From Candidatus Rokuibacteriota bacterium (GTDB taxonomy: Bacteria > Methylomirabilota > Methylomirabilia > Rokubacteriales > CSP1-6), in assembly GCA_016184305.1 (NCBI GenBank), contig JACPCX010000117.1, positions 1 through 45,550 of the forward strand: DNA of 45,550 nt. Reading direction: 5' to 3'. Under the pieces are notes generated by a model that was not told the DNA's origin, did not search any database, and saw only the letters and a program-made list of their open reading frames with translations. Position 1 is the stretch's first letter, and each line of letters opens with the position of its first letter. The position numbers and the translations under genes were made by a program. Of this stretch, positions 10,043 to 39,175 are shown in pieces.

Positions 10043-10050
10043 GTCCTCAC

Positions 10051-10924: not shown

Positions 10925-10957
10925 GCCGATGTGCCTCCTGTGACGTCGGTGGCGCCC

Positions 10958-12184: not shown

Positions 12185-12205
12185 CGGAGTCATCTCCTGT
12201 CTCGT

Positions 12206-12643: not shown

Positions 12644-12666
12644 GTTCTCTCCTGCCCTCTGTCAGT

Positions 12667-13784: not shown

Positions 13785-13859
13785 GGATGCGGACGTCCAA
13801 ACGGGATCCGCCGAAGCCCAAGCCGGTTTCCATGTATCTTAAGAGCCGAGGAGGAGCCA

Positions 13860-14099: not shown

Positions 14100-14106
14100 C
14101 GCTCGC

Positions 14107-15359: not shown

Positions 15360-18300
15360 GTCCCGGCCCTCCTCGCCCCAGACCCCTGAGGCGAGCGAGA
15401 GCGCGGACCAGGAGGCCCGGCCCCACCCGCCTCAGGGCGATCTCGGGAATGAGCATCACGGCCACCAGTCCCACCAGCCAGGGCCACAGGTCCAGCGTCA
15501 GGCGCGAGCGACGCCGCTGCTGGGCGAAGGCGTCGCGCGGCTGGGCCAGTGCGCTGCCGCCGGTAATCTCCGACAGCTCCCGGAGCATGGTCTCATCCAC
15601 CCCGAGGTCCCTGAACTCCTGCGCATACGGTACCACCAGCCCCGCGAGCTGCGAGCCGACCATCTGCTCCCCGCGGCGCTGCGCCATGCCCACGAGGTAC
15701 ACGCCCTCCTGAGACGCCGGGAAGCGACCACGGTAACGCCCAGGCCCCACCTGCTCGAGCTCCACCACGGTGCGCTGCCTGTCGGGCGACACCACGCCCA
15801 CCTGGGAGTCCAGGAAGTTGATGAACTCGCCCTTCGGGTCGACGGCGTCCACCACCACCTCGCCCCGCTCGTCCATCCGCGCCACCGACGCCACCGTGTC
15901 GCTGCGCGTTCCCGAGCGTAGCGTCCAGCGGGTGAGCTGGGCCCAGAACTTGTTGAAGCCTGACCACCTGAGCCAGAGCACCCCCCACTTGGCCTTGGCA
16001 TCCGAGGTGAAGGCCACGGTCCGCCCGAGCCCGTAGCGCCACGTGGCCAGGAGCGGGTCTTCCTGGTGGGTCATGAGCACCATCTCGGCGGTGCCCTTCA
16101 GCGTCGTCGCCACGTAGCCGCCGAGCGGAGGCGCCTCCTTCCAGTTGATGTCCTGGATGGCCTCGTGCGCCGGGCTCGCCAGCGTGGCCCTGAAGGGCTG
16201 CTCGACCAGCGACGACTTGGAAGCGAGCTGGGTCTCGAGGGTGAAGATGCGCGGGATCGTCGCGTCGTCCTCCGTGTAGTAGAAGCGCCCGCGCCCCCAC
16301 TTGGCGATGTCGAACATCAGCTGCACGTCGGCATCCTTGCCGATGGCGACCGTGGACACCGTGATCTTGTCCTTGGCCATGCGACGGATGAGCCCGGCAA
16401 AGTCGCCGCGCGTCATCTGGCCGTCGGAGAGGAAGATCACGTGCTTGAGGAGCGCCGACCGGTCGAAGAGCACCTGGTAGGACTCCTTGAGCGCGGGATA
16501 GCCGTCCGTCCCGCCGCCGGCCTTGATGGTCGCGATGGCGTTGTGGATCGCCTGCTTGTCCCGGGCCGGGCGCATGGGCGAGTCCCAGACGAACTCGGTG
16601 TCCCAGCTCATGATCCCGACCTCGTTGCGCTCGTCCAGCAGGTCTGCCACCAGGTGCGCGGCCTCCTTGGCGATGTCGAGCTTGGTGACCTTGCTGTCGG
16701 TGGTCATGGCCATCGAACCGGAGCGGTCGATGGAGAGCACCACCGCGAGGCTCGGGATCTCGATCTTCTGCTTCACCTCCATGGTCACCGGCAGCGCTTC
16801 CTCGATGGGCGTGCGGTAGTAGCCGCCGAGCCCGAAGCTCTCCTCGCCTCCGAGCATCATCAGCCCGCCACCCTGGTCACGAACGTAGTCGCGGATGCTC
16901 TCCATCTGCTTCTTGGCGAGCTTGAGGGAGGAGACATTGGAGAGGATCACCCCGTCGTACTTCTGCAAGGCCGCCACGTCCTTGGGGATGCGATCCGGCT
17001 CCACCAGCTCCACGTCCACGTGCTGGGCACGCAGAGCGGCAGCCAGGGCCTGCGCCTGGCTCCGGTCCTTCTCCGCCATCAGCACGAGCGGGCGGCCGCG
17101 CACCACGATGGTGCCCACGGCTCGGTTGTTCTCCTCGATCGTGTCACCTTCCACCTCGATGGCGGCCTGGTACACGTGGATCCCGCTGTGCTCCAGGGAC
17201 TGCCGGTACGTGTACACATTCTTGCCGGCCGAGAGACGGACCACCTGCGAGCCCAGGAACTCCCCGTTGCGGAACAGTGACAGCCGCCCCTGAGTGTCGG
17301 CCTGGCTCCAGGTGACGACCTTCGCCTGGAAGGGTTCCCCGAACTTCACCTCCTGCGGCAGCACCATGGACTCGACCACGACCTCCTGCGAGAAGGTCAA
17401 CGGGGCCGGCACATAGTAGACGTCGGCGCCGGCATCCTTGGCCGCCTGGGCCACCGCGAGCGCGTTGCCCGCGTTCTGCCGCCCGTCGGTGAGGAGGACA
17501 AAGCGGTTCGCCTGGCCCGGTGGGGCCGTGGCGAGCGCGAGCTGCAGCGCCTGCGCCAGGTTGGTGCCCCGGCCCGGCACGCGCACCTGGGGCCGCTCCA
17601 GCTTGTAGGAGGCGCGCAGCGGCTGATCCACCACGGCCTCCTCCCCGAAGACGATGAGCCCGGTCTGGTCCCTCTGCTGCATGGCGGTGGCGGCCTGGGC
17701 GGCGAAGCGATAGGCCTTCTCGCGGGCGGCGAGGCTCACGCTGTCGGAGACGTCCAGGAGGAAGAGCACGTTCAGCTGGTCCACCCACCGTGGGATGACG
17801 GGCCGTGCCAGCGCCAGGAGCAGGACGGCCATGAGCACGCAGCGCAGGCCGAGAGCCCAGCGGTCCCCGACGCCGTGCGGGAGACGGAGCCTGCCGGCCG
17901 TCTGGCGGCGCCAGTACAGGACGCCCTCGGCCGCGAACAGCAGGAGGGCCAGCAGCACGAAGTACGGCCACAGCTCCCGCACGACGGGAACCGGAGCCGT
18001 TTCGGGACGGGCTCCCTCGACGAAGGCCGGTACCGGCTTGGGCGCGAGGTCGGACTCCTCGGCGTTCATCAGATTGACGGCGACCCGCGTCTCCCCCCGC
18101 GAGGTCACCACGCGGTAGACGCCCACCTCGTCCGTCTCCGTGAAGCTCGCGACGCCCCGGGTGACCTGCGCCTGGCTGCTCCGCCCCGAGGGGGTCATGA
18201 CCGTGGCGGTAGTGACGCCGTGCTCCACGGGCAAGAGGATCGGCTGACCGGCCTGGAGCTGCAGGCTCGACTGGTCGAGTCCGGCCGGGTGCAGCCAGCG

Positions 18301-19731
18301 CAGGCTCTTCGAGAGCATGAGCGGGAAGGCCACGCGGAGGGGGAAGTCGGACTTGAACAGGTCGAATCCGAAGAAGACGGCCTTGCGCTCCCGCTCCTCG
18401 AGGAGATAGATGAGCGGCCCGCCCACCGCCTCCACGAGAGTCTTCCCGGCCGCCAGGGGACGGACCCGCAGCGCCTCCTCGATCGTGACCTTGGCGAAGT
18501 CGATCTGGCGCATGATCGGGTGCGACCGGTCCCAGTCCATGATGACCGGCGCCTCGAGGCGCCCCAGCACCTCGAGCGGCACGTCGGGCGGCGCGGCGTT
18601 GACGAGCACGAAGCGCCCGTTGCCGATCCGGGGCGGGCTCGCGCTGTCCACCACCACGACGTCGAACCCGTCCATGCCGCCCTGGTACTCCTCCGGGGTC
18701 CGCGTCTCGAGCGTCACCTGCGGGTCGGTGCGGAGCACTTTCTCGAGGAAGAGGTTGCCGGGGCTCACCAGCAGCACCGCGATCGCCCGCGGCGGCGGGA
18801 TCACCGCATGGGCCACGTTGTCGACGTCGAGATCGTCCGCCACGCCGATGCGGGCCCGCACCACGCCCCCGCCCGGGTGACTGAACGGCAGCACCAGCGC
18901 GCGTCTCACCTGCGGCTCGAGGGTGAGAGACTTCTCGGCGATGGGCTCGTCGTCGAGGGTGAGCGTCAGGGCGAAGGTCTGCGCCTCCCCGGAGAAGTTC
19001 ACCACCGAGAGGAAGGCCTGGGAGTCGAATGCCCCGAAGTAGTTCCGGCGCACCGCCAGGTTGGTGATGGCGACATTGCGCCCGCGCTGCCCCACCCCCA
19101 CCCATCGGACCCTGACGTCGTCCCCCTGCCCCCCGACTGCGGCGGGGTGGGCGCCGTCGGTGAAGACGTGGATCTCCGCGCGGGCATCCGGACCCACCAG
19201 CGCGCGGGCGGTCCGGATCCCGTCGCCCAGCCGGTTGGGCAGGTCCCTCGCCTGCATTCCCCGGATCGCCGAGACCACGCGGTCGCGGTCGCGCGTGAAC
19301 GGCACGAGGACCTTCGGCTGGATGCCCGACGCGATCACCATCACCTCGGCGCCCTCGCCGAGAAGTCCAACCAGCCCCAGGGCCTGGCGCTGGGCCACGA
19401 CGAAGCGCGATGGGCTCACGTCGCTGGCCTTCATGGAGGCGGATGTGTCCACGACCACCACGATCTTCTTCGCGCCGTAGCCCATCACGGTGACGGCCGG
19501 CCGGGCCAGGGCCACCGCGAGAGCCAGGAGCGCCAGGATCTGGAGCAGCAACAGCGGGTCACGCTGGAGTCGCTGGAAGAAGGCCGAGGCCTCACGGTCC
19601 CGCAGGGCGGGGTCCCACAGCAGGAGGCTCGAGACAGCCTGCTGCCTCCGCCTGACTTTCAGGAAATAGAGGAGCAGCAGCGGCACGGCGAGCGTCGCCA
19701 GCAGAAGGGAGAGCGGGCTCAGGAAGCTCAT
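15334..19731 (-). CDS. Large membrane protein: BatA-like N-terminus, multiple vWA domains, glutamine-amidotransferase-like domain
   Basis: MIDAS motifs DTSASM, DVSDSV, DRSGSM; LMMLGGEESFGLGGY...EEALPV. Confidence 0.85.
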   Translation of the reverse strand: MSFLSPLSLLLATLAVPLLLLYFLKVRRRQQAVSSLLLWDPALRDREASAFFQRLQRDPLLLLQILALLALAVALARPAVTVMGYGAKKIVVVVDTSASMKASDVSPSRFVVAQRQALGLVGLLGEGAEVMVIASGIQPKVLVPFTRDRDRVVSAIRGMQARDLPNRLGDGIRTARALVGPDARAEIHVFTDGAHPAAVGGQGDDVRVRWVGVGQRGRNVAITNLAVRRNYFGAFDSQAFLSVVNFSGEAQTFALTLTLDDEPIAEKSLTLEPQVRRALVLPFSHPGGGVVRARIGVADDLDVDNVAHAVIPPPRAIAVLLVSPGNLFLEKVLRTDPQVTLETRTPEEYQGGMDGFDVVVVDSASPPRIGNGRFVLVNAAPPDVPLEVLGRLEAPVIMDWDRSHPIMRQIDFAKVTIEEALRVRPLAAGKTLVEAVGGPLIYLLEERERKAVFFGFDLFKSDFPLRVAFPLMLSKSLRWLHPAGLDQSSLQLQAGQPILLPVEHGVTTATVMTPSGRSSQAQVTRGVASFTETDEVGVYRVVTSRGETRVAVNLMNAEESDLAPKPVPAFVEGARPETAPVPVVRELWPYFVLLALLLFAAEGVLYWRRQTAGRLRLPHGVGDRWALGLRCVLMAVLLLALARPVIPRWVDQLNVLFLLDVSDSVSLAAREKAYRFAAQAATAMQQRDQTGLIVFGEEAVVDQPLRASYKLERPQVRVPGRGTNLAQALQLALATAPPGQANRFVLLTDGRQNAGNALAVAQAAKDAGADVYYVPAPLTFSQEVVVESMVLPQEVKFGEPFQAKVVTWSQADTQGRLSLFRNGEFLGSQVVRLSAGKNVYTYRQSLEHSGIHVYQAAIEVEGDTIEENNRAVGTIVVRGRPLVLMAEKDRSQAQALAAALRAQHVDVELVEPDRIPKDVAALQKYDGVILSNVSSLKLAKKQMESIRDYVRDQGGGLMMLGGEESFGLGGYYRTPIEEALPVTMEVKQKIEIPSLAVVLSIDRSGSMAMTTDSKVTKLDIAKEAAHLVADLLDERNEVGIMSWDTEFVWDSPMRPARDKQAIHNAIATIKAGGGTDGYPALKESYQVLFDRSALLKHVIFLSDGQMTRGDFAGLIRRMAKDKITVSTVAIGKDADVQLMFDIAKWGRGRFYYTEDDATIPRIFTLETQLASKSSLVEQPFRATLASPAHEAIQDINWKEAPPLGGYVATTLKGTAEMVLMTHQEDPLLATWRYGLGRTVAFTSDAKAKWGVLWLRWSGFNKFWAQLTRWTLRSGTRSDTVASVARMDERGEVVVDAVDPKGEFINFLDSQVGVVSPDRQRTVVELEQVGPGRYRGRFPASQEGVYLVGMAQRRGEQMVGSQLAGLVVPYAQEFRDLGVDETMLRELSEITGGSALAQPRDAFAQQRRRSRLTLDLWPWLVGLVAVMLIPEIALRRVGPGLLVRALARLRGLGRGGPGHASPRDAV

Positions 19732-20621
19732 GCGAGCAGGAATCCCTTGAGCTGCCTCAGCATGAACTCCTCCACCGGCGTGTCCGTGACCACCCGGTGG
19801 TAGCTGATCTCGTTAGCCCGGCAGAAGCCCTCGGCACACTCGAGGAAATCATGCAGCCGCTGCCGGTACGCGCGCAGGGCTTCCCCGTCCAGGGTGAGGT
19901 CGCGCTCCTCGCCCGTCTCTGAATCCAGCAGGCGCAGGTCCCCGCCGAAGGTGGGGCTCATCTCCTCCGCCCCGAGCAGGTGGATGACGTGGACGTCGAA
20001 GCGCCGCTCGATCAGCGCCTTGAGGCCCCGCTCGTAGCCGCCCGGGACCAGCAGATCCGAGACCAGCACCGCCAGCCCGGCCTCCCGGGCCCGGAGCGCG
20101 TACGTCGCGAGGCTCTCATTGAGCGAGGTGGCGCCGCCGGAACGGAGACGGCCGAGGAAGTCCATCAGCGGGATGGCCTGGGTGCGGCCGCGTGCTGGCG
20201 CCCACCCCTCGGCAAGCCGGTCGCGGAGGGCCCCCACGCCCACACGCTCGTGATTGACGAGCCCCACGAAGCCGAGCGCAGCGGCCAGGCGCGCCGCGTA
20301 GGCGAGCTTGGAGGGCTCGCCGAATCCCATGGAGGCGGAGGCATCGAGGAGGAGGTGCAGACACAGATCCTCCTCGTCCACGAACAGCTTGACGTACAGC
20401 CGGTCGAGCCGGCCGTAGATGTTCCAGTCCACGTAGCGGAGATCGTCGCCCCGGCCGTATGGGCGGTAGTCGGAGAACTCGACGCTGATGCCCTTGCGCG
20501 GGCTGCGCCGCTCGCCCTTCACCCGGCCGCGGAAGGAGCGCCTCGAGAGGAGGGTGAGCCGCTCCAGCTGAACCAGGAAGTCCGTCGAGAGCAGCTCGTG
20601 CCCTCTGGCCGCCGTTGCCAC
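19728..20621 (-). CDS. DUF58 family protein
   Basis: GISVEFSDYRPY..GDDLRYVDWN..RLYVKLF; LLDASASM. Confidence 0.92.
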   Translation of the reverse strand: MATAARGHELLSTDFLVQLERLTLLSRRSFRGRVKGERRSPRKGISVEFSDYRPYGRGDDLRYVDWNIYGRLDRLYVKLFVDEEDLCLHLLLDASASMGFGEPSKLAYAARLAAALGFVGLVNHERVGVGALRDRLAEGWAPARGRTQAIPLMDFLGRLRSGGATSLNESLATYALRAREAGLAVLVSDLLVPGGYERGLKALIERRFDVHVIHLLGAEEMSPTFGGDLRLLDSETGEERDLTLDGEALRAYRQRLHDFLECAEGFCRANEISYHRVVTDTPVEEFMLRQLKGFLLA

Positions 20622-20625
20622 GAGG

Positions 20626-22095
20626 CTATTTCTCGTCGAGCGACTGGAAGTACTGCTTGACCTGGGTCTGGAAGTCCCGGGGCACCTGCTCCCGGGCGAT
20701 GGCTTCCTCCATCATCTTGCGGTACTGCCCGACCACGCCGAGGTATTGCAGGCGGGAGGACATGTGTGCGCCCCGCCCGAGCAAGTTGGTGTCGAACCCT
20801 TCCTTGCGCCCCTGGCGAGACTCGCCCTCGACACCGACGTCGAACGGGTTGGCCCGCAGCCGCTGGGTGGGATCCCCCTTGCGGCTCGGGCTCTTCCCCT
20901 TGCCCGGATAGAACCCCTCGCCGCCCTCGGGGAAGTCGCCCTCGTCGCCCGGGCCTCCCTGGCCTTGCCCGCGATCCCGCTGGGCGCCACGTCGATCGCT
21001 CTCTCGCCCGCCACGAAGCCCCTTGCCGTCCCGCCCCTTCTCCTCGACGGACCGCATCTTGGACAGCGCGCGCTCCATGGCCTCCATGGCCTTGTCGGTC
21101 TGCCCTTGCTCGAGCGCCTCCATCCCCTCGCCGATATCCCCGTTCCACGGGTTCCCCGCTCCGCCCTTGCGCCCGAGCCGCTCCATCTCGTTCAGGAGCT
21201 CGCGCAGCTTCTCGGGCGAGACCTGGTCGGGGCGCAAACCCCCGCGAAGGGCCTTGGCCCGCTGGAACACGACCTTGTGCTGGCTCTGGGTGAAGTCCCG
21301 CTGGAGATCCGGCAGTCGGTCCACCTGCTCGAGCATGCGGATACGCTCGTCGCCCTTCTTGAGGAACGAGTTGAAGTCGGGGCTCTTGCTTCCGAGGGAG
21401 GTGTCCTTGAAGACCGCCGTCAGGTCCCCGGGCTGGCTCTGCCCGCCGGCGCCCTGCCGAGGCACGAGGTTGCGCTCCTGCAGGTCGGCGCGCGGGAACG
21501 CCTCCCGCTTGGCGGCCCGGGGACGCTCATCGGCCTCGAGCCGGCCGTACCGGTCCTGGGCCTTCTCCTGCTCCTCCTCCGTCTTGGCGGAGAAGTTCGG
21601 CAGGCCCCCCGCCGGCAGGGGGATGGGTGGGGCCAGGGCGAGAATCAGTCCCAGCACCAGGGGCACCGGGATGAGCTTCGCCTCTCGCGGGAGAAGCCGG
21701 GGAATGATGCGCCGCCCCTGGTGCCCCTCGGCGCGGGCGGTCGTGTCGGCCACGAGTGCCTCCACCAGGGGGGTGCGGTCGGGGCGCTCCGCCCACTCGA
21801 GACAGGTGGCCACGCGATCCTGAAAACCGAAGCCCCGGTCGGCGAGCCGCGCCGCCTCCGTCTCGGGCACGCGCTTGAGCGCCCCCACGACGGCTCCGAC
21901 GCCGGCACCCAGCAGGAGGAGTCCACCGGCGGCCGCCAGGGCGACGGACCCGAGGGCCTCCCTCAGGACAAGGGGCACCGCCGCCACGGCGGCCGCCACG
22001 AACAGCCCGCGCACGGCGAAGAACTCCGCCCGGCGCAGCCGCACCTCGCGCGTGACGTCCCGGACCAACCGGTGGAGGACACTCGGATCGGGCAT
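20626..22095 (-). CDS. Membrane-anchored hypothetical protein of the MoxR operon
   Basis: N-terminal TM segments, charged Gly-rich region, C-terminal EQVP...VKQYFQSL. Confidence 0.75.
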   Translation of the reverse strand: MPDPSVLHRLVRDVTREVRLRRAEFFAVRGLFVAAAVAAVPLVLREALGSVALAAAGGLLLLGAGVGAVVGALKRVPETEAARLADRGFGFQDRVATCLEWAERPDRTPLVEALVADTTARAEGHQGRRIIPRLLPREAKLIPVPLVLGLILALAPPIPLPAGGLPNFSAKTEEEQEKAQDRYGRLEADERPRAAKREAFPRADLQERNLVPRQGAGGQSQPGDLTAVFKDTSLGSKSPDFNSFLKKGDERIRMLEQVDRLPDLQRDFTQSQHKVVFQRAKALRGGLRPDQVSPEKLRELLNEMERLGRKGGAGNPWNGDIGEGMEALEQGQTDKAMEAMERALSKMRSVEEKGRDGKGLRGGRESDRRGAQRDRGQGQGGPGDEGDFPEGGEGFYPGKGKSPSRKGDPTQRLRANPFDVGVEGESRQGRKEGFDTNLLGRGAHMSSRLQYLGVVGQYRKMMEEAIAREQVPRDFQTQVKQYFQSLDEK

Positions 22096-22113
22096 TGCCC
22101 CTCCTCCCCCGGG

Positions 22114-23151
<1,038 letters not shown>

Positions 23152-23201: not shown

Positions 23202-23230
23202 ATCATATGTGTCATTCCCCCACCCGTCAA
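23202..23230 (-). promoter_or_regulatory. sigma70 promoter of the moxR operon
   Basis: TTGACG-17 bp-TATGAT. Confidence 0.7.
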
Positions 23231-23244: not shown

Positions 23245-24306
23245 TCACGCGCCGCGCACGACTCCCGAGAGCCGCCCGTAGAGTTCGAGGTAGCCCTCCA
23301 GCTCGCGCGCGGGGCCGAAGCGTTCCCCGACGCGCTCGCGGGCGGTCTCGCCGAGGCGCAGGCGCAGGGCCGGATCCGCGATGAGCCGCTCCAGCTGCTC
23401 GGCGAAATCCGCCGGCCCGGAGAAGTGCAGCCCGGTGACGCCGGCCTGGACCAGCGAGCGGTTGCCCTCGATGTCCGCGGCGAGCACGGCACGCCCCAGA
23501 GCCATCGCCTCGAGCACCGAGTTGGCCATGCCCCCCTCGGAGATGGAGCAGTTGAGCACGACATCCGCGCCCTCCAGCAGGCGCCGGATGCGGTGGTGAG
23601 GCACGGCTCCGAGGTAGCGCGCCCAGGGCCGATCGCGGAGAGCGCTCAGCAGCGCGTCGCCCTCTCCAGGATCGAGGATGGGGCCGACGTACCGGAGCTC
23701 GAGGCCCGGGTAGCGCGGCACGATGTCGTCCAGCGGGACCAGCGGAAAGAGCGGGCGCTTCACCATCCGGATACCGGCGGGGAACAGCAGCACCGGTCCC
23801 GCCGCCGGCGAGGGCACCACGCCATGGCCGTCCGCCGATTCGGGGCGGGCCTGCTCTTCCTCGAAGAAGGCGCTTTGCGGCACCACGCGAAGCCGCGGCG
23901 CGAGGCCGGGCAGCGCCTCCCTGATACGCGAGACCATGGACTCATGGAACATGCTGATGCAGGCCGCCCCTTCGAGCGCGTCGCGGACCACGTGGGCCCG
24001 CGCGGGGTCGAAGAGATCATGGTTGGCGTCCGTGCCGGTGATGGTCAGCAGCAGCGGAACGCCCGCCCGGCGCGCCAGCCGGAGCGCCAGCGGTCCGACA
24101 CGGTAGGCGTGGAAGGCATGGATGAGCGTGGGCGCGAACGCGAGGACCTCCCGCTCGATCCTCGACTCTGGAGCCGCCGACACATCCCAGACCCGCAGGT
24201 CCACGCCGCGGCTCCTGAGTCCGCGAGCGATGCGCTCCACGGTGATGGCGTTGCCCCGCACCGAGGGAAAGGCAAATGGAGTCAGGAGAGCCACCCGCGG
24301 CGCCAT
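23245..24306 (-). CDS. GT-B (family 4-like) glycosyltransferase, SenB/GLT1D1-like
   Basis: LLTP...RGNAIT, HAFHA, TGTD, VVPQS, GIRMVKRP, SISEGGMANSVLEAM, DIEGN. Confidence 0.8.
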   Translation of the reverse strand: MAPRVALLTPFAFPSVRGNAITVERIARGLRSRGVDLRVWDVSAAPESRIEREVLAFAPTLIHAFHAYRVGPLALRLARRAGVPLLLTITGTDANHDLFDPARAHVVRDALEGAACISMFHESMVSRIREALPGLAPRLRVVPQSAFFEEEQARPESADGHGVVPSPAAGPVLLFPAGIRMVKRPLFPLVPLDDIVPRYPGLELRYVGPILDPGEGDALLSALRDRPWARYLGAVPHHRIRRLLEGADVVLNCSISEGGMANSVLEAMALGRAVLAADIEGNRSLVQAGVTGLHFSGPADFAEQLERLIADPALRLRLGETARERVGERFGPARELEGYLELYGRLSGVVRGA

Positions 24307-24314
24307 GGCCGCCA

Positions 24315-24343
24315 AGCCTACACGCGGGTCCGGGCGAAGGCAA
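24315..24343 (-). promoter_or_regulatory. Probable leaderless promoter of the glycosyltransferase
   Basis: TTGCCT-17 bp-TAGGCT, 8 nt before ATG, no RBS. Confidence 0.55.
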
Positions 24344-24530
24344 TCGCCCGCTCGCCTGCGGCGGCGGTTGGCCCTCCCCCGCGCGCGGTCGTGCCGGGCC
24401 ATGCTGCACCCATCGCGCCCCTGCCGCCCTCTAAAGGACGACTGGAGATTCCTGGCGGCTGTGGTACCGTTTGTCCGGGTGCCAGCCGCTCACGGGTCCC
24501 TCGACGAGGGGCGGCCCACGGAGAACGTGA

Positions 24531-24782
24531 ATGGACGAGCAATCGTCGGATCTGGAGTGTCGCGGCTGCGTCGATCTGCTGGCCGACTACGTGGACGGGA
24601 CCCTCGCGACGTCTCAGGCCGAGCTGCTCGAGTGGCACCTCGAGGGATGCGCGCCATGCGTCGCCTTCGTGAACACGTACAAGGGAACCGTTGACGCCGC
24701 GAAGCGACTGCGCGAGACGAGGATCCCTCCCGAGCTCCACCGCAAGCTCGTCGCGTTCCTTCAACGCTCCGCCCACACGTAA
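24531..24782 (+). CDS. zf-HC2 (anti-sigma-like) small protein
   Basis: C...LLADYVDG...HLEGCAPC (HxxxCxxC). Confidence 0.85.
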   Translation: MDEQSSDLECRGCVDLLADYVDGTLATSQAELLEWHLEGCAPCVAFVNTYKGTVDAAKRLRETRIPPELHRKLVAFLQRSAHT

Positions 24783-24789
24783 GCCCTCT

Positions 24790-24922
24790 CTAGCAGGCCG
24801 CTGAAAAAGGCCCATCTGCTGCGTTGGCGCCCTCGGCCGCACGCTCAACGTACAGAGAGTACGCCTCGCGTGCGGCCGTCGGGCGCCGCCTTGCATCTGG
24901 ACCTTTTTGAGCGGCCTGCGGG
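24790..24922 (-). mobile_element. MITE-like element family A, copy 1 (no nested insert)
   Basis: Terminal inverted repeats GCAGGCCGCT(G/C)AAAAAGG...CCTTTTT(G/C)AGCGGCCTGC; homologous to 30416 and 35628 copies. Confidence 0.85.
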
Positions 24923-25672
24923 CTCGAGGAAGAGGCTGATGGCGACGTGGATTCGCTGCCCCAGCCCTCCCGCTCCCACCAGCCCGAGAATCGCCGCCGC
25001 CCGGATATTGACCTCCCACCGGTACAGCGCGTAGGACACGAGCTGCGGGGCGGCCTGGGGAAGCATGCCGTAGAGGAGGATGCGCAGCCGGCTGGCCCCG
25101 GTGGACTGCAGTGCCTCCAGCGGCCGTGGGTCCACGTCCTCCAGCACTTCGCCGAAGAGCTTGCCCAGCACGCCTGCCGTGTGGAAGCCCAGCGCCAGCG
25201 CGCCCGGGAAGGGGCCGAGCCCGACCATGAACACGAAGATGACGGCCCAGAGCAGCTCGGGAATGGTGCGCAGGAGTCTGAGGAGCGCCTTGCCGGCCAC
25301 GCAGACGCCGACGCGGAGCATGAGCGAAGCCCGCGACAGCGTGTGGCCCTCGTACAGGATGCCCTGGTAGAGGAGGGTACGCGTGGTCAGCAGCGACAGG
25401 GGCAGCGCGAGGCAGATCGCGAGGAGCGAGCCCAGGAACGAGATGGCGAAGGTCTCGACGGCTCCCACGGCTGCCTCCCGCAGGGTCGCGGGCGACAGAT
25501 CTGGGGGGAAGAGCCGGACGACGTAGGCCGCCATCTGCCGGAGGGCCTCCCCCCCCAGGAGACTGCCGAGATCAACCCCGGTGCCTCGGTACGACCATGC
25601 GATGAGGATCGTGAACCCCGCGAGGGTGAGCCATGCGGTGCGGATTTGACCCCGGGGAGGTGCTGGGATCAT
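24845..25672 (-). CDS. PhnE-like ABC permease 2; C-terminus replaced by MITE sequence
   Basis: LRTIPEL, GLGPFPG, LYRWEVNIRAAAILGLVGAGGLG; homology stops at ISLFLE where the MITE begins. Confidence 0.8.
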   Translation of the reverse strand: MIPAPPRGQIRTAWLTLAGFTILIAWSYRGTGVDLGSLLGGEALRQMAAYVVRLFPPDLSPATLREAAVGAVETFAISFLGSLLAICLALPLSLLTTRTLLYQGILYEGHTLSRASLMLRVGVCVAGKALLRLLRTIPELLWAVIFVFMVGLGPFPGALALGFHTAGVLGKLFGEVLEDVDPRPLEALQSTGASRLRILLYGMLPQAAPQLVSYALYRWEVNIRAAAILGLVGAGGLGQRIHVAISLFLEPAGRSKRSRCKAAPDGRTRGVLSVR

Positions 25673-26538
25673 CGGATGATCCGGGCGCGGAGACGGCCGC
25701 TCACGAAGTCCACGCAGCCCACGACCACGAAGAGAATTCCGAGCAGCGTCGCGACCTCGTCGAACTGGAACATGCGCATCGACAGGTCGATCTGCTGGCC
25801 GAGCCCCCCCGCGCCGACGAACCCGAGGATCGCCGAGGCGCGGATGGCGCACTCCCACCGGTACAGCGTGTAGGACACGAAGGCCGGCAGGGCCTGGGGC
25901 ACGAGACCGTAGAGGACGATCCCGGGTCGCGAGGCGCCGCCCGCGTGGAGCGCCTCGAGCGGCCGCGGATTGGCGCCCTCGAGGATCTCCGAGTAGACCT
26001 TGCCGAGCATCCCCCCGTAGGCGACCCCGATGGCGAGGACGCCGGGGAAGGGCCCCAGCCCCACGGCGCGCACGAAGACGAGCGCCCAGACGTATTCCGG
26101 GATGGCGCGGAAGATGGAGAGGAGCCCGCGGGCCGCCGCGTAGGGGACGAAGCCGCCGAGCCAGCGCCCGAACCGGCTCCGCCGCTCGTGGAGCACGCCG
26201 CTCCAGGTGAGCGACGACGTCGCGAGCAGGCCCAGCGGCAGGCCGATGAGCACGGCGATCACCATCCCCATGACCGAGATCTGGACGGTCTCGAGCACCG
26301 GCCGGAGCATGAGGCCGAGGAACTGGGGAGAGACCTGAGGCGGGACGCTCCCCCGAAGGAAGCGCAGCACGTTGCCCAGCGCATCGCCCTCGAGGAAGCG
26401 TCGCGGGTCTGCCTGGGCCACGTGGAGCGAGCCCACGAAGGCGATCAGGAGGGCACCCGTCAGGAGGTACGGGAACGCGGACTTACGTGCTGAAACCGGG
26501 AAGCGGTCGGCAGGCGCCACCGAATGGGCCCTGGCCAT
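25669..26538 (-). CDS. PhnE-like ABC permease 1
   Basis: FRAIPEYVWA, GMLGKVYSE, LYRWECAIRASAILGFVGAGGLG. Confidence 0.88.
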   Translation of the reverse strand: MARAHSVAPADRFPVSARKSAFPYLLTGALLIAFVGSLHVAQADPRRFLEGDALGNVLRFLRGSVPPQVSPQFLGLMLRPVLETVQISVMGMVIAVLIGLPLGLLATSSLTWSGVLHERRSRFGRWLGGFVPYAAARGLLSIFRAIPEYVWALVFVRAVGLGPFPGVLAIGVAYGGMLGKVYSEILEGANPRPLEALHAGGASRPGIVLYGLVPQALPAFVSYTLYRWECAIRASAILGFVGAGGLGQQIDLSMRMFQFDEVATLLGILFVVVGCVDFVSGRLRARIIR

Positions 26539-27307
26539 GACGCGGCGGCTCCCGAGGGGCCGCCTCGTCCTGGTCTCCGGCGTACAGCCCCTCGAGGAGC
26601 GCACGGGTGACCTTGTCAGGTGAGAGGTCGAAGTGGACCCGGCCGTCCCGGACCCCGACGATGCGGGGGAAGTAGGCGAGCGCGAGGTCAACGCTGTGGA
26701 GATTCATCAGGAGCGTCTTCCGCGACCCCGTCGACAGCTCCGTGAGGAGGGCCACGATCCCGGACGCGAGCGAGGGGTCCACCGACGATACCGGCTCGTC
26801 GGCGAGGATGATGTCGGGGTTCTGGATCAGCAGGCGCGCGATGGCCACCCGCTGCTGCTGGCCGCCTGACAGCTCGTCGGTGCGGGCATAGAGCTTCTCG
26901 GGGATCCCCACCCGTGCAAGCGCCCGACCGGCCCCGTTCGCGTCCTGTGGGCGGAGGAAGGAGTAGAGCGCAACCGCCGTTGACCAGCGACCCAGATGGC
27001 CCGCAAGCACGTTGTGCACCACCTTGAGCCGGCCCACCAGATTGTGCTGCTGATAGATCGTCCCGATCCGCATCCGCGCCTGGCGGAGCTCGACATCCGA
27101 CAGCCGCGTCACGTCGATCCCGTCGAGCCTCACGATCCCCGAGGTGGGGAGCAGGGTCAGGTTCATGATCCGGAAGAGCGTGGTCTTGCCGGCCCCGCTC
27201 GGACCGACGACGGCGACCTGCTCACCGGGCCCCACGGTCAGCGTGAGGCCGTCGAGGCCCGCGGTGCCGTCGTTGAACACCTTGCGCAGGTCGAGAAGCT
27301 CGTACAT
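26483..27307 (-). CDS. PhnC-like ABC ATP-binding protein
   Basis: [33 protein letters not shown]. Confidence 0.92.
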
Positions 27308-28186
27308 CTACTTGAGCAACCCAGCCGCGATGGCGGCCTCCTCGGTCCCCTTCCAGTCCGTGTCCTTGGCCTTGATGTACTTCTTCGTCCGGTGCAGATC
27401 GAGCAGCTTCTTGTGCTCGGGGTTCCGGTAGTCGAGCTTGAGGAACGCCGCCGTGATCCGGTCCAGGAGCCCCTGGTCCAGCTCCCCCCGCGCGGTCCAC
27501 ACGTAGTCCACGTAGGGCGGCGTCGTGTAGAACACCGCCACCTTGGACCGATCGACCTTCTGCTGCTGGACCAGCTTGTCCCAGACGAGGAAGTTCAGGG
27601 CGCCAGCGTCCACCTTCCCCGACTCGACCCAGAGCGCCGTGGCGTCATGGGCCCCGGAGAACGCCACCTGCTTCAGGTCCTTCTCGGGAGTGATCCGCGC
27701 CTGCAAGAGGAAGTACCGCGGCATCAGGTGGCCCGAGGTGGACGAGACCGAGCCAAAGGCGAATGTCTTGCCCCGAAGATCCTCCAGGCCCTTGATGCCG
27801 GAGCCGGGGCGCGCAACAAAGACCGACTTGAACTTAGCATCCTCCTGCCGCAGCACGAGCCGCCGCGCCGTGCCGTTGGTCCGCCGCACGGCCTGGACGG
27901 ACGTGAAGCCACCGTACCACACCATATCGAGCTTCTTCGCGGCCAGCCCCTCGACCGTGGCCGCGTAGTCCACCACCGGCGTGAACTGGACCTTCATGCG
28001 AAGCTCCCGCGAGAGGTACTCGGCAAACGGGGCGTAGATCCGCAGCAGCTCGCTGGGGTTCTCATCGGGGATGGCGGAGACCCTGAGGATCTCCGGCGTG
28101 TCGCCCCGGGCCGGCCCCACCGCGGCCGACGTCACCAGCAGGAGCAGAAGCGCCGTGCCCAGTTCCGCGCGCAGGCGTGTGATCAC
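27308..28186 (-). CDS. PhnD-like substrate-binding protein, selD-associated (putative selenium oxyanion) clade
   Basis: LRVSAIPDENP, DYAATVE, WYGGFT, STSGHLMP, SGAHDAT, YVDYVW; directly downstream of selD. Confidence 0.85.
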   Translation of the reverse strand: MITRLRAELGTALLLLLVTSAAVGPARGDTPEILRVSAIPDENPSELLRIYAPFAEYLSRELRMKVQFTPVVDYAATVEGLAAKKLDMVWYGGFTSVQAVRRTNGTARRLVLRQEDAKFKSVFVARPGSGIKGLEDLRGKTFAFGSVSSTSGHLMPRYFLLQARITPEKDLKQVAFSGAHDATALWVESGKVDAGALNFLVWDKLVQQQKVDRSKVAVFYTTPPYVDYVWTARGELDQGLLDRITAAFLKLDYRNPEHKKLLDLHRTKKYIKAKDTDWKGTEEAAIAAGLLK

Positions 28187-28307
28187 GAAATCCCCCTCAC
28201 GAGCGTCGTGGATGACGCCCGTTGAGATGCCCACTCACGCGATCGGGATTCGATACTCGGTCACATTGGCGGGAGCGATAGGCGGGGCGGACTTGAATCG
28301 AGGACGC

Positions 28308-29387
28308 CTATGCGTGGACGGCGATCTTCGCCTCTTCGGTCACCTCGCCGATCTCCCAGCATGGCTCCCCACGCCGAGCGAAGCCCTCGATCACGGCGCT
28401 CCGGCGCTCTCGAGGAACCGAGAAGAGGAGTCCCCCGGAGGTCTCGGCCTCGAAGAGGAGTCCAACGAGCGCCTCCGGCACCGAGGGATCGATGGCGAGC
28501 CGTCCACTCTCGCCGAGGGTGTGCTCCACGTGGCGCCGGTTGCGCTTCATGCCGCCGCTCCAGTGCCCCTTCTCGGCCAGGACCAGGGCGCCCGGGAGCA
28601 GCGGCAGGTCCTTCGCGCGCAGCGCGATGCCGGCACCGGAGGCCTCCACCATCTCGGCGGCGTGGCCGAGAAGGCCGAAGCCGGTGATGTCGGTGGCCCC
28701 GCGCACGCCCACCTCCTGCGCCACCTCCGAGGCCGCGCGGTTCAGCCGGAGCATGCTCTCGATGGCCTCGTCGAGCACCGCGGGATCGCAGGCATCCGCC
28801 TTCGCGGCGGTCGCGATCACGCCGGTCCCCAGGGGCTTGGAGAGAAACAGGCACTCGCCGGCGCGCAGCCCCCCCTTGATGAAGATCCTCGAGGGGTGCA
28901 CCCGCCCGGTGACGCACAGCCCGTACTTCGGCTCGGCATCCACCACGGTGTGGCCGCCCGCGATGACGCCACCGGCCTCGCGCACCTTGTCCGCTCCCCC
29001 GCGGAAGATGGCCGCGATGGTGTCCTGCGGGAGCTCCCGGGGGAAACCTGCCACGTTGAGGGCGAAGAGCACCTGCCCGCCCATGGCGTAGACGTCCGAC
29101 ATGGAGTTGGCCGCCGCGATGGCGCCGTAGAGGTACGGGTCGTCGACGATGGGCGGGAAGAAGTCCACGGTCTCCACCACCGCAACCTCGTCGCTGATGC
29201 GGTAGACCGCGGCGTCGTCGCTGTGCCCAAGCCCCACGAGGAGGTCGGGGGGCTCCTCCTGCTTGAGCCCCCCCAGCACGTCCCGGAGATCCCCGGGACC
29301 CATCTTGGAGGCTCAGCCAGCGCAGGCGGCATAGCTGGTGAGGCGGATCTCCTTCCCGCTGCGCGGCGCTGGCATCGGCGTGTCCAT
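28308..29387 (-). CDS. selD: Selenophosphate synthetase (selenide, water dikinase), itself a selenoprotein
   Basis: IRLTSYAACAG-U(TGA 29313-29315)-ASKMGPG in frame; DDAAVY, TVDFFPPIVDDP, SDVYAMGG, GGHT, TDITGFGLLGH, ETSGGLL. Confidence 0.95.
29280..29299 (-). promoter_or_regulatory. Candidate SECIS of selD
   Basis: GUCCCGGG-GAUC-UCCGGGAC hairpin starting 13 nt after UGA; loop starts with G, 21 nt from UGA. Confidence 0.7.
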
Positions 29388-29437
29388 GGTCTCCCTCGGC
29401 CTCGTGATGTTTGGATGCCGAGAGCGCGGGGAACGGT

Positions 29438-30340
29438 TCAGTCGCGCTCGGCCGACTCGGCATCCAGGAAGACCCGGAAGGCCTCGGCCAGCGGGGACCG
29501 GCTGCGGTCCCTGTGGGTCACCACGTGGAATGCGCGGGTCACGCTCAGGTCCTTCACGCGGAGACCCCAGAGGAGGCCGTGCCGGCACTCCTCCTCCACG
29601 GCGCGCCTGGAGAGGACCGAGATGCCGACGCCCGCCTTGACAGCTTGCTTGATGGCCTGCGTCGAGCCCATCTCCCCCACGATCCGGAAGGCATCGAGAC
29701 GCAGATCGGCGGCGGCGAGCGCCGCTTCCAGCGCCGCGCGCGTCCCCGACCCTCGCTCGCGGATCAGGAGGGGCTCGGCCCTGAGCTCCTCGAGGGTCAC
29801 CTGGGTGCGGCCGTGCCACGCATGGCCGGCAGGCACCACGACGACCTCCTCGTCGGGCATCAGCTCTCGGTACTCCACCGCCCGGTGGGGCAGGCGGGCG
29901 CCGACGACGCCGAGCTCGGCCTTCCCCTCTACCACCCAGCCCACGACGGCCTGGCTGTCGCCGATCAGGAGCGTGATGGAGATCTCGGGGTACTTGTCCT
30001 TGAAGCGGCCGATGAGGGGCGGCAGGACGTACTCGCCGGGGATCGTGCTCGCGCCGATGAGCAACCCGCCGCTCATCTTCCCCTGGAAGCTGTCCAGCGC
30101 CTGGCGCGCCTCACGCTGGAGTGCGAGCATGCGGCTCGCGTAGGAGACCAGCAGCTCTCCGGCGCGCGTCACCGCGGCCCCGCGTCCGAGGCGATCGAGC
30201 AGCCGCACTCCGAGCTCGTCCTCCAGCGTGCGGATGTGCTCCGACACCGTGGGCTGCGTGAGATGCAGGGCCTCGGCCGCCCTCGAGAACGAACCGAGCT
30301 CGGCGACCTTGACGAAGATCTCGAGCTGGCGGAGGTCCAT
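29438..30340 (-). CDS. LysR-family regulator (selenium-metabolism-associated type)
   Basis: MDLRQLE...SFSRAAEALHLTQPTVSEHI; GASTIPGEY; RERGSGTR; immediately upstream of selD. Confidence 0.88.
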   Translation of the reverse strand: MDLRQLEIFVKVAELGSFSRAAEALHLTQPTVSEHIRTLEDELGVRLLDRLGRGAAVTRAGELLVSYASRMLALQREARQALDSFQGKMSGGLLIGASTIPGEYVLPPLIGRFKDKYPEISITLLIGDSQAVVGWVVEGKAELGVVGARLPHRAVEYRELMPDEEVVVVPAGHAWHGRTQVTLEELRAEPLLIRERGSGTRAALEAALAAADLRLDAFRIVGEMGSTQAIKQAVKAGVGISVLSRRAVEEECRHGLLWGLRVKDLSVTRAFHVVTHRDRSRSPLAEAFRVFLDAESAERD

Positions 30341-30350
30341 GACGGAACTC

Positions 30351-30379
30351 AGTATAGGGGCCGCTCCGACCACTGTCCA
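30351..30379 (-). promoter_or_regulatory. Near-leaderless promoter of lysR-selD
   Basis: TGGACA-17 bp-TATACT, 10 nt before ATG. Confidence 0.65.
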
Positions 30380-30415
30380 GCCGGAGCGCGGGGACAAGCA
30401 CGAGGCCCGAGGTCC

Positions 30416-30606
30416 CCCGCAGGCCGCTCAAACAGGTCCAGATGCAAGCGGCGAGGGAGGCGACGGGCGAGGCGTACTTCGCTTGGCGAGCCGAGCCGGA
30501 GGCGAGGTGAGCGGATCCGGAGATCCGGGCGAGCGTGAGCGAGCCACGTTGAGCGAGGAGCGACCGAGCCAACGCCGCAGATGGGCCTGTTTGAGCGGCC
30601 TGCTAG
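30416..30606 (+). mobile_element. MITE-like family A copy 2 with nested family B (30485-30545)
   Basis: GCAGGCCGCTCAAACAGG...CCTGTTTGAGCGGCCTGC-TAG; terminal CTAG coincides with the lpdA stop. Confidence 0.85.
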
Positions 30607-31988
30607 CGCAACAGGCTCTCGGCGGCCTCCATGAGGCCCTCGGATAGCGTGGGATGCGCGTGGATGGTCGCGGCGACATCCTCGGCCAGGAGCGCGTTCT
30701 CGACGGCCAGCGCGCCTTCCGCGATCAGCTCTCCGGCGCCGGGCCCGACGATCCCGACGCCGAGGACCCGGCCCGAGGTCGGGTCGATCACGAGCTTCGT
30801 CAGTCCGTCCGAGCGGCCCAGCGTGGCGGCCCGGCCCGAGGCTGCCCACGCGAACTTCCCGATGCGCACCTCGCGCCCGGCCGCCTGGGCCTCATGCTCG
30901 GTCAGGCCGCACCACGCCACCTCGGGATCCGTGAAGACGACCGCCGGCACGGCTCGATTGTCGAAGGCCGCCGGGCGCCCCGCGATGGCCTCGGCCGCGA
31001 CCTTGCCCTGGCGCATGGCGCGGTGGGCCAGCATGGGCTCGCCCGTGACATCCCCCACGGCATAGATCCGCGGGTCTTCCGTCCGGCAGCGGTCGTCGAC
31101 GGGAATCACCCCGCGCGCGTCCGGGCGAACGCGCGTGGCTTCGAGCCCCAGCCCGTCGCTCTGCGCCCGGCGCCCCACGGCCATCAGCACGCGGTCGAAC
31201 ACCATGGCGGCCCGGCCCTCGATGCGCGCCTCGACGACGGCTCCGCTGTCCACGAGGCCGGCCACGCGCGCTCCCAGGTGGACCTCGGCGAACAGCTTCT
31301 CCACACGGCGGGCCAGCGGCTGGACCAGATCGCGATCGACTCCAGGCAGGAGCCCGTCCATCATCTCCACCACGGTAACCCGGCTGCCGAGGGCGGCGTA
31401 CACCGCGCCCAGCTCGAGGCCGATGTACCCGCCGCCGATCACGAGGAGTCGTTCGGGGACATCAGGCAGCTCCACCGCCGCCGTGGAGTCCATGATGCGT
31501 TCGCTGCGCGCCGCGAGGCCCGGAAGCATGGCGGGCCGCGACCCGGTGGCGACGATGGCGTGGGCGAAGCGGATCTTCTGCGGCTCGTCCCCCTCGACCC
31601 TGAGTCCGCGCGAGCTCTCGAACACGGCGCGCCCGCCGACCACGTCCACGCCCTTGCCTTTCGCCACGGCCGCCAGCCCCCGCGCGAGCCGCCCCACGAC
31701 CCGCTCCGTCTTCCATGTGCGCAGGGCATCCAGCGCGATCCGTGGCTCGCCGAAGTCCACCCCGAGCTCCCGCGCGCGCTCGGCCTCCGAGATCAGTCCC
31801 GCGACGTGCAGCAGCGCCTTGGACGGGATGCAGCCCTCGTGCAGGCAGACACCGCCGAGCCGCTTGCCGGCATCCACGACGACGGCCTCGAGCCCCAGCT
31901 CCGCGGCGCGGAAGGCCGCCGAGTACCCGCCCGGCCCCCCGCCGACCACGGCCATGTCCACCTCGCGCACGAGATCGCCCATGACCAT
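30603..31988 (-). CDS. lpdA: Dihydrolipoamide dehydrogenase
   Basis: GGGPGGY, GGVCLHEGCIPSK, GGGYIGLE, IHAHPTLSE; start 31988 or 31982. Confidence 0.95.
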   Translation of the reverse strand: MVMGDLVREVDMAVVGGGPGGYSAAFRAAELGLEAVVVDAGKRLGGVCLHEGCIPSKALLHVAGLISEAERARELGVDFGEPRIALDALRTWKTERVVGRLARGLAAVAKGKGVDVVGGRAVFESSRGLRVEGDEPQKIRFAHAIVATGSRPAMLPGLAARSERIMDSTAAVELPDVPERLLVIGGGYIGLELGAVYAALGSRVTVVEMMDGLLPGVDRDLVQPLARRVEKLFAEVHLGARVAGLVDSGAVVEARIEGRAAMVFDRVLMAVGRRAQSDGLGLEATRVRPDARGVIPVDDRCRTEDPRIYAVGDVTGEPMLAHRAMRQGKVAAEAIAGRPAAFDNRAVPAVVFTDPEVAWCGLTEHEAQAAGREVRIGKFAWAASGRAATLGRSDGLTKLVIDPTSGRVLGVGIVGPGAGELIAEGALAVENALLAEDVAATIHAHPTLSEGLMEAAESLLR

Positions 31989-38556: not shown

Positions 38557-38566
38557 TTGGAACTTC

Positions 38567-39106: not shown

Positions 39107-39175
39107 GACCGCAGTATATCGCGGGCCGCTCAAGGGGCCATGGGGGTGCCGTCTGTGATAGGGTTCAGACCATCG

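Follow-up and report, generated by a model that had tools for sequence, protein, structure and literature searches.

A GT4 glycosyltransferase related to SenB beside a selD operon in a Rokubacteria-type genome, and its possible role in selenosugar synthesis

What becomes of selenophosphate in a bacterium that carries a glycosyltransferase gene close to selD? To our knowledge, selenium is put into small molecules by only two routes, those of selenoneine and ovoselenol, in both of which SenB acts first and a SenA- or OvsA-type enzyme last, and SenB is the only selenium-sugar synthase known. The question is raised here by contig C18 (JACPCX010000117.1) of a metagenome-assembled genome (MAG) of Candidatus Rokuibacteriota, hereafter G000 (assembly GCA_016184305.1; 3.2 Mb, 239 contigs, 88.8% complete). 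The window analyzed is the whole contig, 45,550 bp, with a G+C content of about 70% and nearly all genes on the minus strand. A sequence-only reading of it had proposed a selenium uptake, selenophosphate and selenosugar locus made up of lysR, selD, a PhnD/C/E/E-like transporter and a glycosyltransferase (GT) gene. All of these genes were found, co-oriented on the minus strand at the positions it gave, and, as it had also noted, no senA, egtB, selA, selB, selU, yqeB or yqeC was detected among the window open reading frames (ORFs) scanned. Comparisons were made with 58 related Rokubacteria-type loci (subsets according to the flank length available), with 61 genomes of the order, including G000 and one genome (G032) flagged as unpublished, and with loci of the wider GT family, for which an alignment of 12 GT sequences was the query. 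Promoter- and terminator-like sites are from a consensus scan of the sequence, not from measured transcripts. L and G numbers below denote loci and genomes of the comparison.

Judged from its sequence, the GT belongs to an uncharacterized family that is sister to SenB. Its pocket, neighbours and distribution point to selenium, and a selenosugar role is a tentative but serious possibility. The features that bear on the gene are as follows.

23245..24303, minus strand: GT4 (GT-B) glycosyltransferase of an uncharacterized SenB/BshA-related family (NF038229-like, 338 bits)
24313..24318, minus strand: -10-like box TAGGCT, 9 nt 5′ of the GT start codon, leaving a short or absent leader
24531..24782, plus strand: antisense zf-HC2 (RsrA-like anti-sigma) gene, encoding a soluble protein of 83 amino acids (aa) (PF13490, E 1.9e-9)
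23202..23230, minus strand: promoter-like TTGACG-17-TATGAT, 10/12 matches, between the GT stop and the MoxR start (shuffle mean 0.1)

Among the NCBIfam models, the best match of the GT was NF038229, "GPMC system family 4 glycosyltransferase" (338 bits, cut-off 400, aligned over 1-336 of 338 positions). SenB (TIGR04348) came second with 96.3 bits against a cut-off of 300, followed by the next family at 57, and the GT is thus not SenB itself, a point that the sequence-only reading had proposed to check. The GT is the best TIGR04348 match in the whole G000 genome, in which no protein passed that cut-off, and it lies far below the models of BshA (TIGR03999, 35.6 bits, cut-off 273.7) and MshA (TIGR03449, 36.4 bits, cut-off 462.5). 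NF038229 was also the best family for all 18 family GTs scanned against NCBIfam, with 247-399 bits and none reaching 400; the family comprises 268 clusters at 50% identity with E ≤ 1e-30. Close relatives are named in the sources only as generic glycosyltransferases. In the literature searched, no paper was found that uses the term "GPMC system" and none on the family, the supplementary selD-neighbour tables of the selenoneine preprint lying outside this search.

A single-sequence search of the PDB returned RsSenB as the best match (8k5u, E 5.7e-12), while the N-terminal 120 residues gave no useful match to PDB sequences. The AlphaFold2 model of the GT had a pLDDT (predicted local distance difference test) of 90.5, and its best Foldseek matches were GlgM, MshA, BshA and SenB, among which SenB was highest in identity (24-25%) and in target-normalized TM-score (template modelling score; 0.79-0.84). 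All four are GT4 enzymes with small anionic acceptors.

The selenophosphate pocket of SenB is reported to consist of N20, H58, R61, T83, T85 and R155 (PMC10891094, PMC10702425), and K158 to cleave the Se-P bond, according to one of these two sources. In the HMMER alignment of the GT to RsSenB, H64 and R67 fell on H58 and R61; T88, T90 and D91 on T83, T85 and D86; R178, V180 and K181 on R155, V157 and K158; and E255 and E264 on E231 and E239. Five of the six pocket residues, the catalytic lysine and both glutamates were therefore aligned, N20 being matched by motif. At the positions of SenB H58, R61 and T83, this alignment shows Y, P and H for BshA. The EGG motif, in which E231 of SenB binds the sugar, contains a one-residue insertion in the GT (EGGMAN vs EGGAHV). 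The pocket signature was kept across 47 family members from at least 7 phyla, with 11 scattered single substitutions and one poorly aligned row (L115) as exceptions; these do not count position 67, which is variable, being R or K in many members and other residues elsewhere. This conservation suggests one common chemistry for the family. The tree of the 47 GTs mostly followed taxonomy and gave no indication of a single selenium-linked clade, the three rows with selD near being in three places.

The conserved backbone in Rokubacteria was lysR-selD ... zinc-finger (antisense)-GT-MoxR-hyp489-DUF58, hyp489 being a 489-aa protein. The linkage of the GT to selD, which the sequence-only reading had proposed to follow in relatives, held: selD lay upstream on the same strand in 40 of the 42 Rokubacteria loci whose upstream flank spans 6 kb or more (exceptions L051 and L073), and the GT was also beside selenium genes in other lineages. 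They included 1) six Methylomirabilales-type loci (L091, L097, L098, L103, L115 and L123), in which the GT is 3-58 bp before, or slightly overlaps, a LysR gene, and L112, in which only the 3′ part of the GT is present, about 57 bp before LysR; the two LysRs scanned (L098 and L103) passed the model of the selenium-metabolism-associated clade, LysR_Se, with 299 and 311 bits, and in L103 and L112 a binding protein gene (TIGR04553, 339 bits in L103) comes next, then PhnC and PhnE; 2) a deltaproteobacterial MAG with the string YdjC-GT-selD-NapC-like cytochrome, the selD encoding a selenocysteine (Sec) form (L105); 3) the Bacillota genome G200, with the string selD-GT-PF01522-like deacetylase (L172); and 4) the Bacillota genome G077, where selD, the GT and a LysR_Se-like gene scoring slightly below the cut-off (228 bits) are found within 7 kb, with 2.9 kb between SelD and the GT (L114). 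Looser arrangements were an Acidobacteria locus with SelD 8 kb off on the opposite strand, and two Planctomycetota genomes with a distance of 15-16 kb. Counted strictly, SelD was within the fetched flanks of 3 of the 26 non-Methylomirabilota loci, where about 0.1 is the estimated chance expectation.

At the genome level, SelD passed its cut-off in 28/32 GT-bearing genomes outside the Rokubacteria order, the other four being MAGs of 1.0-1.7 Mb. One Bacillota class had GT matches (E ≤ 1e-60) in 26/210 genomes and SelD in 139/210; SelD was present in 23 of the 26 GT-positive genomes and in all 11 whose GT scored at least 244 bits. Since the relatives are not independent and are mostly MAGs, these co-occurrence data are supportive, not decisive.

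The commonest neighbour of the GT family was a sugar de-N-acetylase, of the YdjC/HpnK type (L095, L105, L106, L110, L118, L119, L120, L121, L127, L173 and L174) or, in Bacillota, PF01522-like (L113, L116, L169-L172 and L176). A HemK/PrmA-type methyltransferase was also in the GT string of L118-L120 and L127; the L119 and L120 versions are fusions with an ATP-grasp ligase and come after a flavoprotein resembling coenzyme A (CoA)-disulfide reductase (325 bits, cut-off 579). From these recurrent partners, the GT product is most likely an N-acetylglucosamine (GlcNAc)-type conjugate that is then deacetylated and tailored. In G000, such genes are on contig C8 (L168: 622-5505), where a conserved cluster consists of genes for a gamma-glutamyltranspeptidase, a 150-aa protein, a HemK2-like methyltransferase, a YdjC deacetylase adjacent to it, and a ROK kinase. 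This YdjC and methyltransferase resemble the GT-family partners in other phyla; the YdjC was found in 58/61 genomes of the order (57/60 without G032), and the methyltransferase was beside it in 6 of the 9 loci checked. A different context was seen in L113 and L116 (Bacillota), with an AMP-binding enzyme, a UbiA prenyltransferase, the GT, the deacetylase, a flavin-reductase-like protein and CoxG, unlike both the selenium-linked and the YdjC-linked ones. The FGE-sulfatase protein after the GT in L117 was considered as a sign of a sen- or ovs-like system and rejected, as it matched SenA/EgtB with 35-40 bits and was closer to PvdO and GldK.

In the likeliest single reading, by analogy to SenB, the GT would couple selenophosphate to a uridine diphosphate (UDP)-sugar, probably UDP-GlcNAc, giving a 1-seleno-sugar, and the YdjC-type de-N-acetylase and methyltransferase of contig C8 would tailor it in a SenA-independent amino-selenosugar route. 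That the GT and a deacetylase, often with a methyltransferase and in some phyla with the ATP-grasp enzyme and flavoprotein, make up a widespread SenA-independent route from selenophosphate to a tailored amino-selenosugar is a doubtful, fairly unlikely generalization. Such a pathway would be split in Rokubacteria, with the GT beside lysR-selD under an RsrA-like redox sensor and the methyltransferase-YdjC pair on another contig. Its product could be a low-molecular-weight selenol, the selenium counterpart of bacillithiol or mycothiol, or a bacterial equivalent of the methylated, deacetylated selenosugar excreted by mammals.

Several observations weigh against a selenosugar role. The GT falls below the cut-offs of both SenB (96/300) and NF038229 (338/400). 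When the family profile was searched against the PDB, BshA (5d00, 85 bits) ranked above SenB (76 bits), and GlgM, MshA and BshA were at or above SenB in Foldseek. G16-N17-x-x-T20 of the GT corresponds to G19-N20-x-x-T23 of SenB as a motif only, not in the alignment, and any small phosphate or carboxylate could fit a pocket lined by Thr, Arg, His and Asn. No SenB sequence for a joint tree was found in 201 genomes of one Pseudomonadota class (nor did any SenB pass the cut-off in 14 control genomes). The GT has a conserved -10 box of its own and is separated from the selD operon by a convergent gene, and the content of the interval from selD to the GT differs from locus to locus: nothing, the importer, or a transglutaminase-like protein with a twin-arginine translocation (TAT) signal, with or without a TlpA-like thioredoxin. 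The synteny in Rokubacteria could be plain vertical inheritance. SelD passed its cut-off in 58/61 genomes of the order (57/60 without G032), nearly always with one TGA, so that co-occurrence says nothing within Rokubacteria; it is equally uninformative in the Planctomycetota class, with SelD in 14/14 GT-positive genomes and 30/34 overall. Of the 26 non-Methylomirabilota loci, 23 had no selD within 10 kb, and the 10 Geobacterales-/Desulfuromonadales-type loci had no selenium gene nearby. Three Bacillota genomes (G252, G253 and G258) had no SelD (best 58-78 bits) and kept the GT-deacetylase pair, their GTs having Asn at the position of SenB H58.

A selenium-free function is the first alternative. 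The GT would then be of BshA/MshA type, adding GlcNAc to a small phosphate or carboxylate acceptor, and the product would be deacetylated and built into a low-molecular-weight thiol or glucosamine conjugate; proximity to selD would come from shared redox/chalcogen housekeeping or inherited gene order. The rank of BshA in the profile search, the top Foldseek matches and the three SelD-negative genomes agree with this, as do the recurrent pairing with a YdjC or PF01522 deacetylase, which has the logic of BshA/BshB and MshA/MshB, the ATP-grasp::methyltransferase fusion with its flavoprotein in L119 and L120, and the RsrA-like nature of the divergent gene, the RsrA/SigR system being one that controls mycothiol genes. 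Left unexplained are the presence of selD in the same string in two unrelated phyla and the adjacency to LysR_Se and a selenium importer in Methylomirabilales. Moreover, BshA has no counterparts of SenB H58, R61 and T83, which the GT family keeps, and in G000 neither the GT nor the methyltransferase-YdjC pair had a dedicated cysteine ligase among its neighbours. We regard the selenium-free function as somewhat unlikely.

The gene has the marks of a separate transcription unit. A -10 box, TAGGCT, TATGCT or TATCCT, was at the same place before the GT in the 8 relatives printed. With this box and the promoter-like site after the stop codon, the GT is probably monocistronic, and unit 2 of the locus would consist of this GT4 gene alone, divergent from the RsrA-like zinc-finger gene. 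The caveat in the sequence-only reading, that the GT has its own promoter and is preceded by an antisense gene, was therefore justified. The zf-HC2 gene is divergent from the GT and convergent with the second permease gene, and was present in 55 of the 58 Rokubacteria-type loci; it lies in the 541 bp that separate the end of this permease gene from the GT start. Its product scored below the TIGR03988 cut-off (26 bits, cut-off 62.5) and has C10, C13 and H36-x3-C40-x2-C43, which we take to be the RsrA pattern of redox-sensing anti-sigma factors. A LysR box shared between the lysR upstream region and the zinc-finger-GT intergenic region was considered and rejected; 8 loci showed only separate -10-like boxes there, giving no evidence of co-regulation.

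Downstream of the GT is a Bat-like operon (13839-23151, minus strand) consisting of a MoxR AAA+ ATPase (22114-23151), the 489-aa protein, which has no family match (20626-22095), DUF58 (19728-20621), a VWA protein of about 1490 aa with an N-terminal double-transmembrane domain (15334-19812) and a TPR protein (13839-15431). MoxR, hyp489 and DUF58 are conserved 3′ of the GT across Rokubacteria loci, and MoxR follows the GT in 47/47 loci for which 4.5 kb or more of downstream sequence was available (median gap about 315 bp). The GT could thus serve this MoxR-hyp489-DUF58-VWA-TPR operon or envelope glycosylation, its adjacency to selD being an accident of gene order, and the generic naming of its close relatives as glycosyltransferases would agree. 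This is very improbable in our view: the interval from the GT stop to the MoxR start contains a promoter-like site, 2.2-6.8 kb separate the two genes in eight relatives, and in no locus outside the Rokubacteria type did the GT family adjoin MoxR or DUF58. Its active-site signature is kept in all contexts, which argues for one chemistry unrelated to MoxR. The weight not taken up by selenosugar synthesis, the selenium-free function and the MoxR or envelope role goes to something else.

Compared with senB/senC of the sen/ovs systems of Variovorax paradoxus and Halomonas, as described in the cited sources (bioRxiv 10.1101/2022.04.13.486033, PMC11030361), a SelD-family synthetase is near a GT-B enzyme in both; the window GT shares the SenB pocket residues and catalytic lysine, and a putative selenate importer is near, as in some sen clusters. 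The differences are that the window GT is of another family (TIGR04348 96 bits, cut-off 300) and in a separate transcription unit, that no SenA, EgtB or OvsA-type enzyme was found in the 88.8%-complete G000, that the window SelD, which contains Sec, is a housekeeping enzyme in an organism that decodes Sec, and that the usual partner of the GT family is a sugar de-N-acetylase, which sen and ovs are without. With BshA/BshB and MshA/MshB, the GT has in common the GT4 fold class with H..., xGTD and R-x-V-K motifs, the family-wide pairing with a de-N-acetylase, and redox neighbours (the RsrA-like protein, the TlpA-like thioredoxin and, in other phyla, the CoA-disulfide-reductase-like flavoprotein). 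It differs from them in its low scores with the BshA and MshA models and in the residues BshA lacks; the deacetylases are of YdjC or PF01522 type, not LmbE, and no BshC or MshC was seen.

If selenophosphate is a substrate of the GT family, these enzymes would represent a second kind of selenosugar synthase and open a third pathway with a different downstream chemistry (de-N-acetylation and methylation), in the soil, groundwater and sediment bacteria sampled. The claim is directly testable with a handful of recombinant proteins. The interest of the locus lies in the GT of unit 2; unit 1, which follows, is an ordinary selenium locus with a cassette polymorphism, and its importer matters less.

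30351..30379, minus strand: sigma-70-like promoter TGGACA-17-TATACT, 10/12 consensus matches, just 5′ of the lysR start
29438..30340, minus strand: lysR, selenium-metabolism-associated clade LysR_Se (NF040786, 315.4 bits, cut-off 250)
28308..29387, minus strand: selD, selenophosphate synthetase with selenocysteine at codon 25 (TIGR00476, 328 bits)
29259..29320, minus strand: hairpin resembling a selenocysteine insertion sequence (SECIS), beginning at the UGA (-38.7 kcal/mol, z -3.71)
27308..28186, minus strand: periplasmic binding protein of the selD-associated PhnD-like clade (TIGR04553, 330.6 bits, cut-off 250)
26483..27307, minus strand: ATP-binding cassette (ABC) ATPase, PhnC-like (TIGR02315, 246.8 bits, below the cut-off of 266.1)
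about 25669..26538, minus strand: permease 1, PhnE-like, start approximate (TIGR01097, 228.2 bits, cut-off 216.7)
24845..25672, minus strand: permease 2, PhnE-like (TIGR01097, 216.3 bits, just under the cut-off of 216.7)
24794..28207, no strand assigned: 3.4-kb importer cassette, an indel in comparison with the nearest relative, locus L021, which has 17 bp instead

The start of lysR was set at the ATG at 30340 from the conserved upstream region, in which the TATACT box is kept in close relatives; its end is 50 bp from selD. In 24700-30700, only one promoter-like site was found, that at 30379-30351 (shuffle mean 0.2), and the consensus scan gave no terminator-like site, which fits a transcript from lysR to the permeases. 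Unit 1 would thus be one transcript from the promoter at 30379 to 24845, carrying lysR_Se, selD(Sec), the binding protein, the ATPase and two permeases. LysR passed the NF040786 cut-off and has selenium genes as neighbours. The selD frame is open through a single TGA (29315-29313, motif AACAG-U-ASK); the protein passed the TIGR00476 cut-off with Sec in the N-terminal glycine-rich loop, and the stability of the hairpin after the UGA was equalled by none of 200 shuffles. The sequence-only reading had also given selD as UGA-recoded. The binding-protein gene begins 121 bp past the selD stop with a GTG start and the ribosome-binding site GAGGGGGA; its product passed TIGR04553, the NCBI model named for a putative selenate ABC transporter binding protein, and its gene is next to selD, and the ATG of permease 2 overlaps the stop codon of permease 1. 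With LysR, SelD and the binding protein each passing a curated model, the proposal of a LysR-regulated selenium import and selenophosphate module stands.

A LysR clade beside selD has been described by comparative genomics (LysR_Se/HrsM; Lin et al. 2015, PMC5322559). The arrangement here is the same, LysR and the binding protein passing their models and adjoining selD, and shows no substantial difference from what that source and the TIGR04553 entry describe, other than the importer as a mobile 3.4-kb cassette. By its families and gene order, unit 1 is accordingly classed with the known type of selenium acquisition and activation operon. The Sec-containing SelD would convert selenide to selenophosphate, as its family does, and LysR_Se would tune expression of the unit, following the comparative work published on the clade (PMC5322559).

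Beside this unit, a small CxxC zinc-ribbon ORF was observed directly before lysR (250 bp) in L023, L025, L043 and L066, with a Gly/Cys-rich C-terminal tail ending ...CCGGGGCGCH, and beginning MPIYEYRC in L023 and L043. Neither the window nor its closest relatives have this ORF, and a dihydrolipoamide dehydrogenase gene takes its position there. Six genomes of the order (G016, G028, G040, G043, G049 and G052) contained a second SelD-like match, absent from the window, without a TGA and in open frames of 752-1214 aa, possibly an oxidoreductase::SelD-type fusion.

Consumers of selenophosphate were looked for in the rest of G000. Genes for both YqeB and YqeC are present on other contigs, with scores of 345.3 bits (cut-off 220) and 157.5 bits (cut-off 73). 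The genome-wide search for senA, suggested by the sequence-only reading, found none in the 88.8%-complete genome by profile (best 20.9 bits, cut-off 420), EgtB was likewise not found there (best 36 bits, cut-off 360), and neither the cluster nor the genome contained a SenA/EgtB/OvsA-type selenoxide synthase as in the sen/ovs systems. SelA and SelU were not found in the G000 assembly, SelB gave no match over its cut-off (best 107.7 bits, cut-off 242), and tRNA-Sec was absent among the 25 tRNAs found by ARAGORN, a number from which the assembly is clearly incomplete. In the order, SelA passed its cut-off in 51/61 genomes (51/60 without G032). As YqeB and YqeC are present, SelD is itself a selenoprotein and SelA occurs in most genomes of the order, no new fate of selenophosphate is needed to explain selD, and the "undescribed fate" of the sequence-only reading is dispensable. 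Selenophosphate would feed known consumers, namely selenoprotein synthesis and the YqeB/YqeC selenium-cofactor route. On the same contig, 17-23 kb from selD, is an iron-sulfur assembly region (3925-12661, minus strand) with an Rrf2/IscR-like regulator, IscS, IscU, IscA and HscA, and with a NifS-type cysteine desulfurase (4989-6164) and CysE (3925-4611) at its 3′ part. Enzymes of the NifS and IscS types are able to pass selenium on to SelD.

The importer is an accessory, optional cassette gained or lost among relatives, not a fixed part of the locus. In L021, the nearest relative, the DNA is 96-98% identical on either side and the cassette is absent, and only 10 of the 58 Rokubacteria-type loci have any of the cassette genes. 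This portable nature of the putative selenium importer is the new detail of unit 1, and near-identical genomes with and without it form a clean natural pair. In 12 other loci, the interval from selD to the zinc-finger gene is filled by other genes; by Pfam, 8/8 interval proteins were TAT-signal transglutaminase-like, and a ResA/TlpA-like thioredoxin was also present in 3 loci. The transglutaminase-core protein was at the cassette spot in L022, L023, L029, L032, L041, L043, L047 and L076, with a weak TAT-signal match in two, and the thioredoxin in L023, L047 and L048.

As to the substrate, the nearest solved relatives of the binding protein are picocyanobacterial PhnD1 proteins, 7S6G (203 bits) and 5LQ5 (194 bits). 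PhnD1 proteins are reported to bind phosphite best, then phosphate and methylphosphonate, and to need ligands with three oxygens in a trigonal arrangement (PMC10284923), a geometry that selenite would also fit. The importer would therefore, we infer, take up a small selenium oxyanion, with selenite as the best fit. That it is instead a phosphite, phosphate or phosphonate transporter, placed after selD incidentally, is improbable. The ligand preference of PhnD1, the optional nature of the insert and the TIGR04553 name, a "hypothetical equivalog" for which no binding data were found, would allow it. Yet the binding protein passes TIGR04553 (330.6/250) and fails the PhnD equivalog TIGR03431 (168 bits, cut-off 261.1), and the cassette sits exactly between selD and the next gene with no promoter- or terminator-like site of its own. 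In Methylomirabilales, too, this cassette comes after LysR_Se, and the window ORFs scanned contained no phosphite dehydrogenase, C-P lyase or other phosphonate-catabolism family. In addition, a subset of sen clusters is reported to adjoin a putative selenate transporter gene (bioRxiv 10.1101/2022.04.13.486033).

Some minor observations concern the window as a whole. The Rfam scan of the locus gave two matches, both treated as chance: ASdes with 24.1 bits and sul1 with 23.8 bits fell short of their gathering scores of 40 and 36.2. A thiol-redox pair is encoded at 37819-40405 (minus strand), where a 612-aa open frame ending in an AhpC/TSA-redoxin domain adjoins a DsbD-type transmembrane protein. 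Groundwater- and soil-labelled metagenome DNA runs contained at least half of the sampled window words, indicating a possible habitat.

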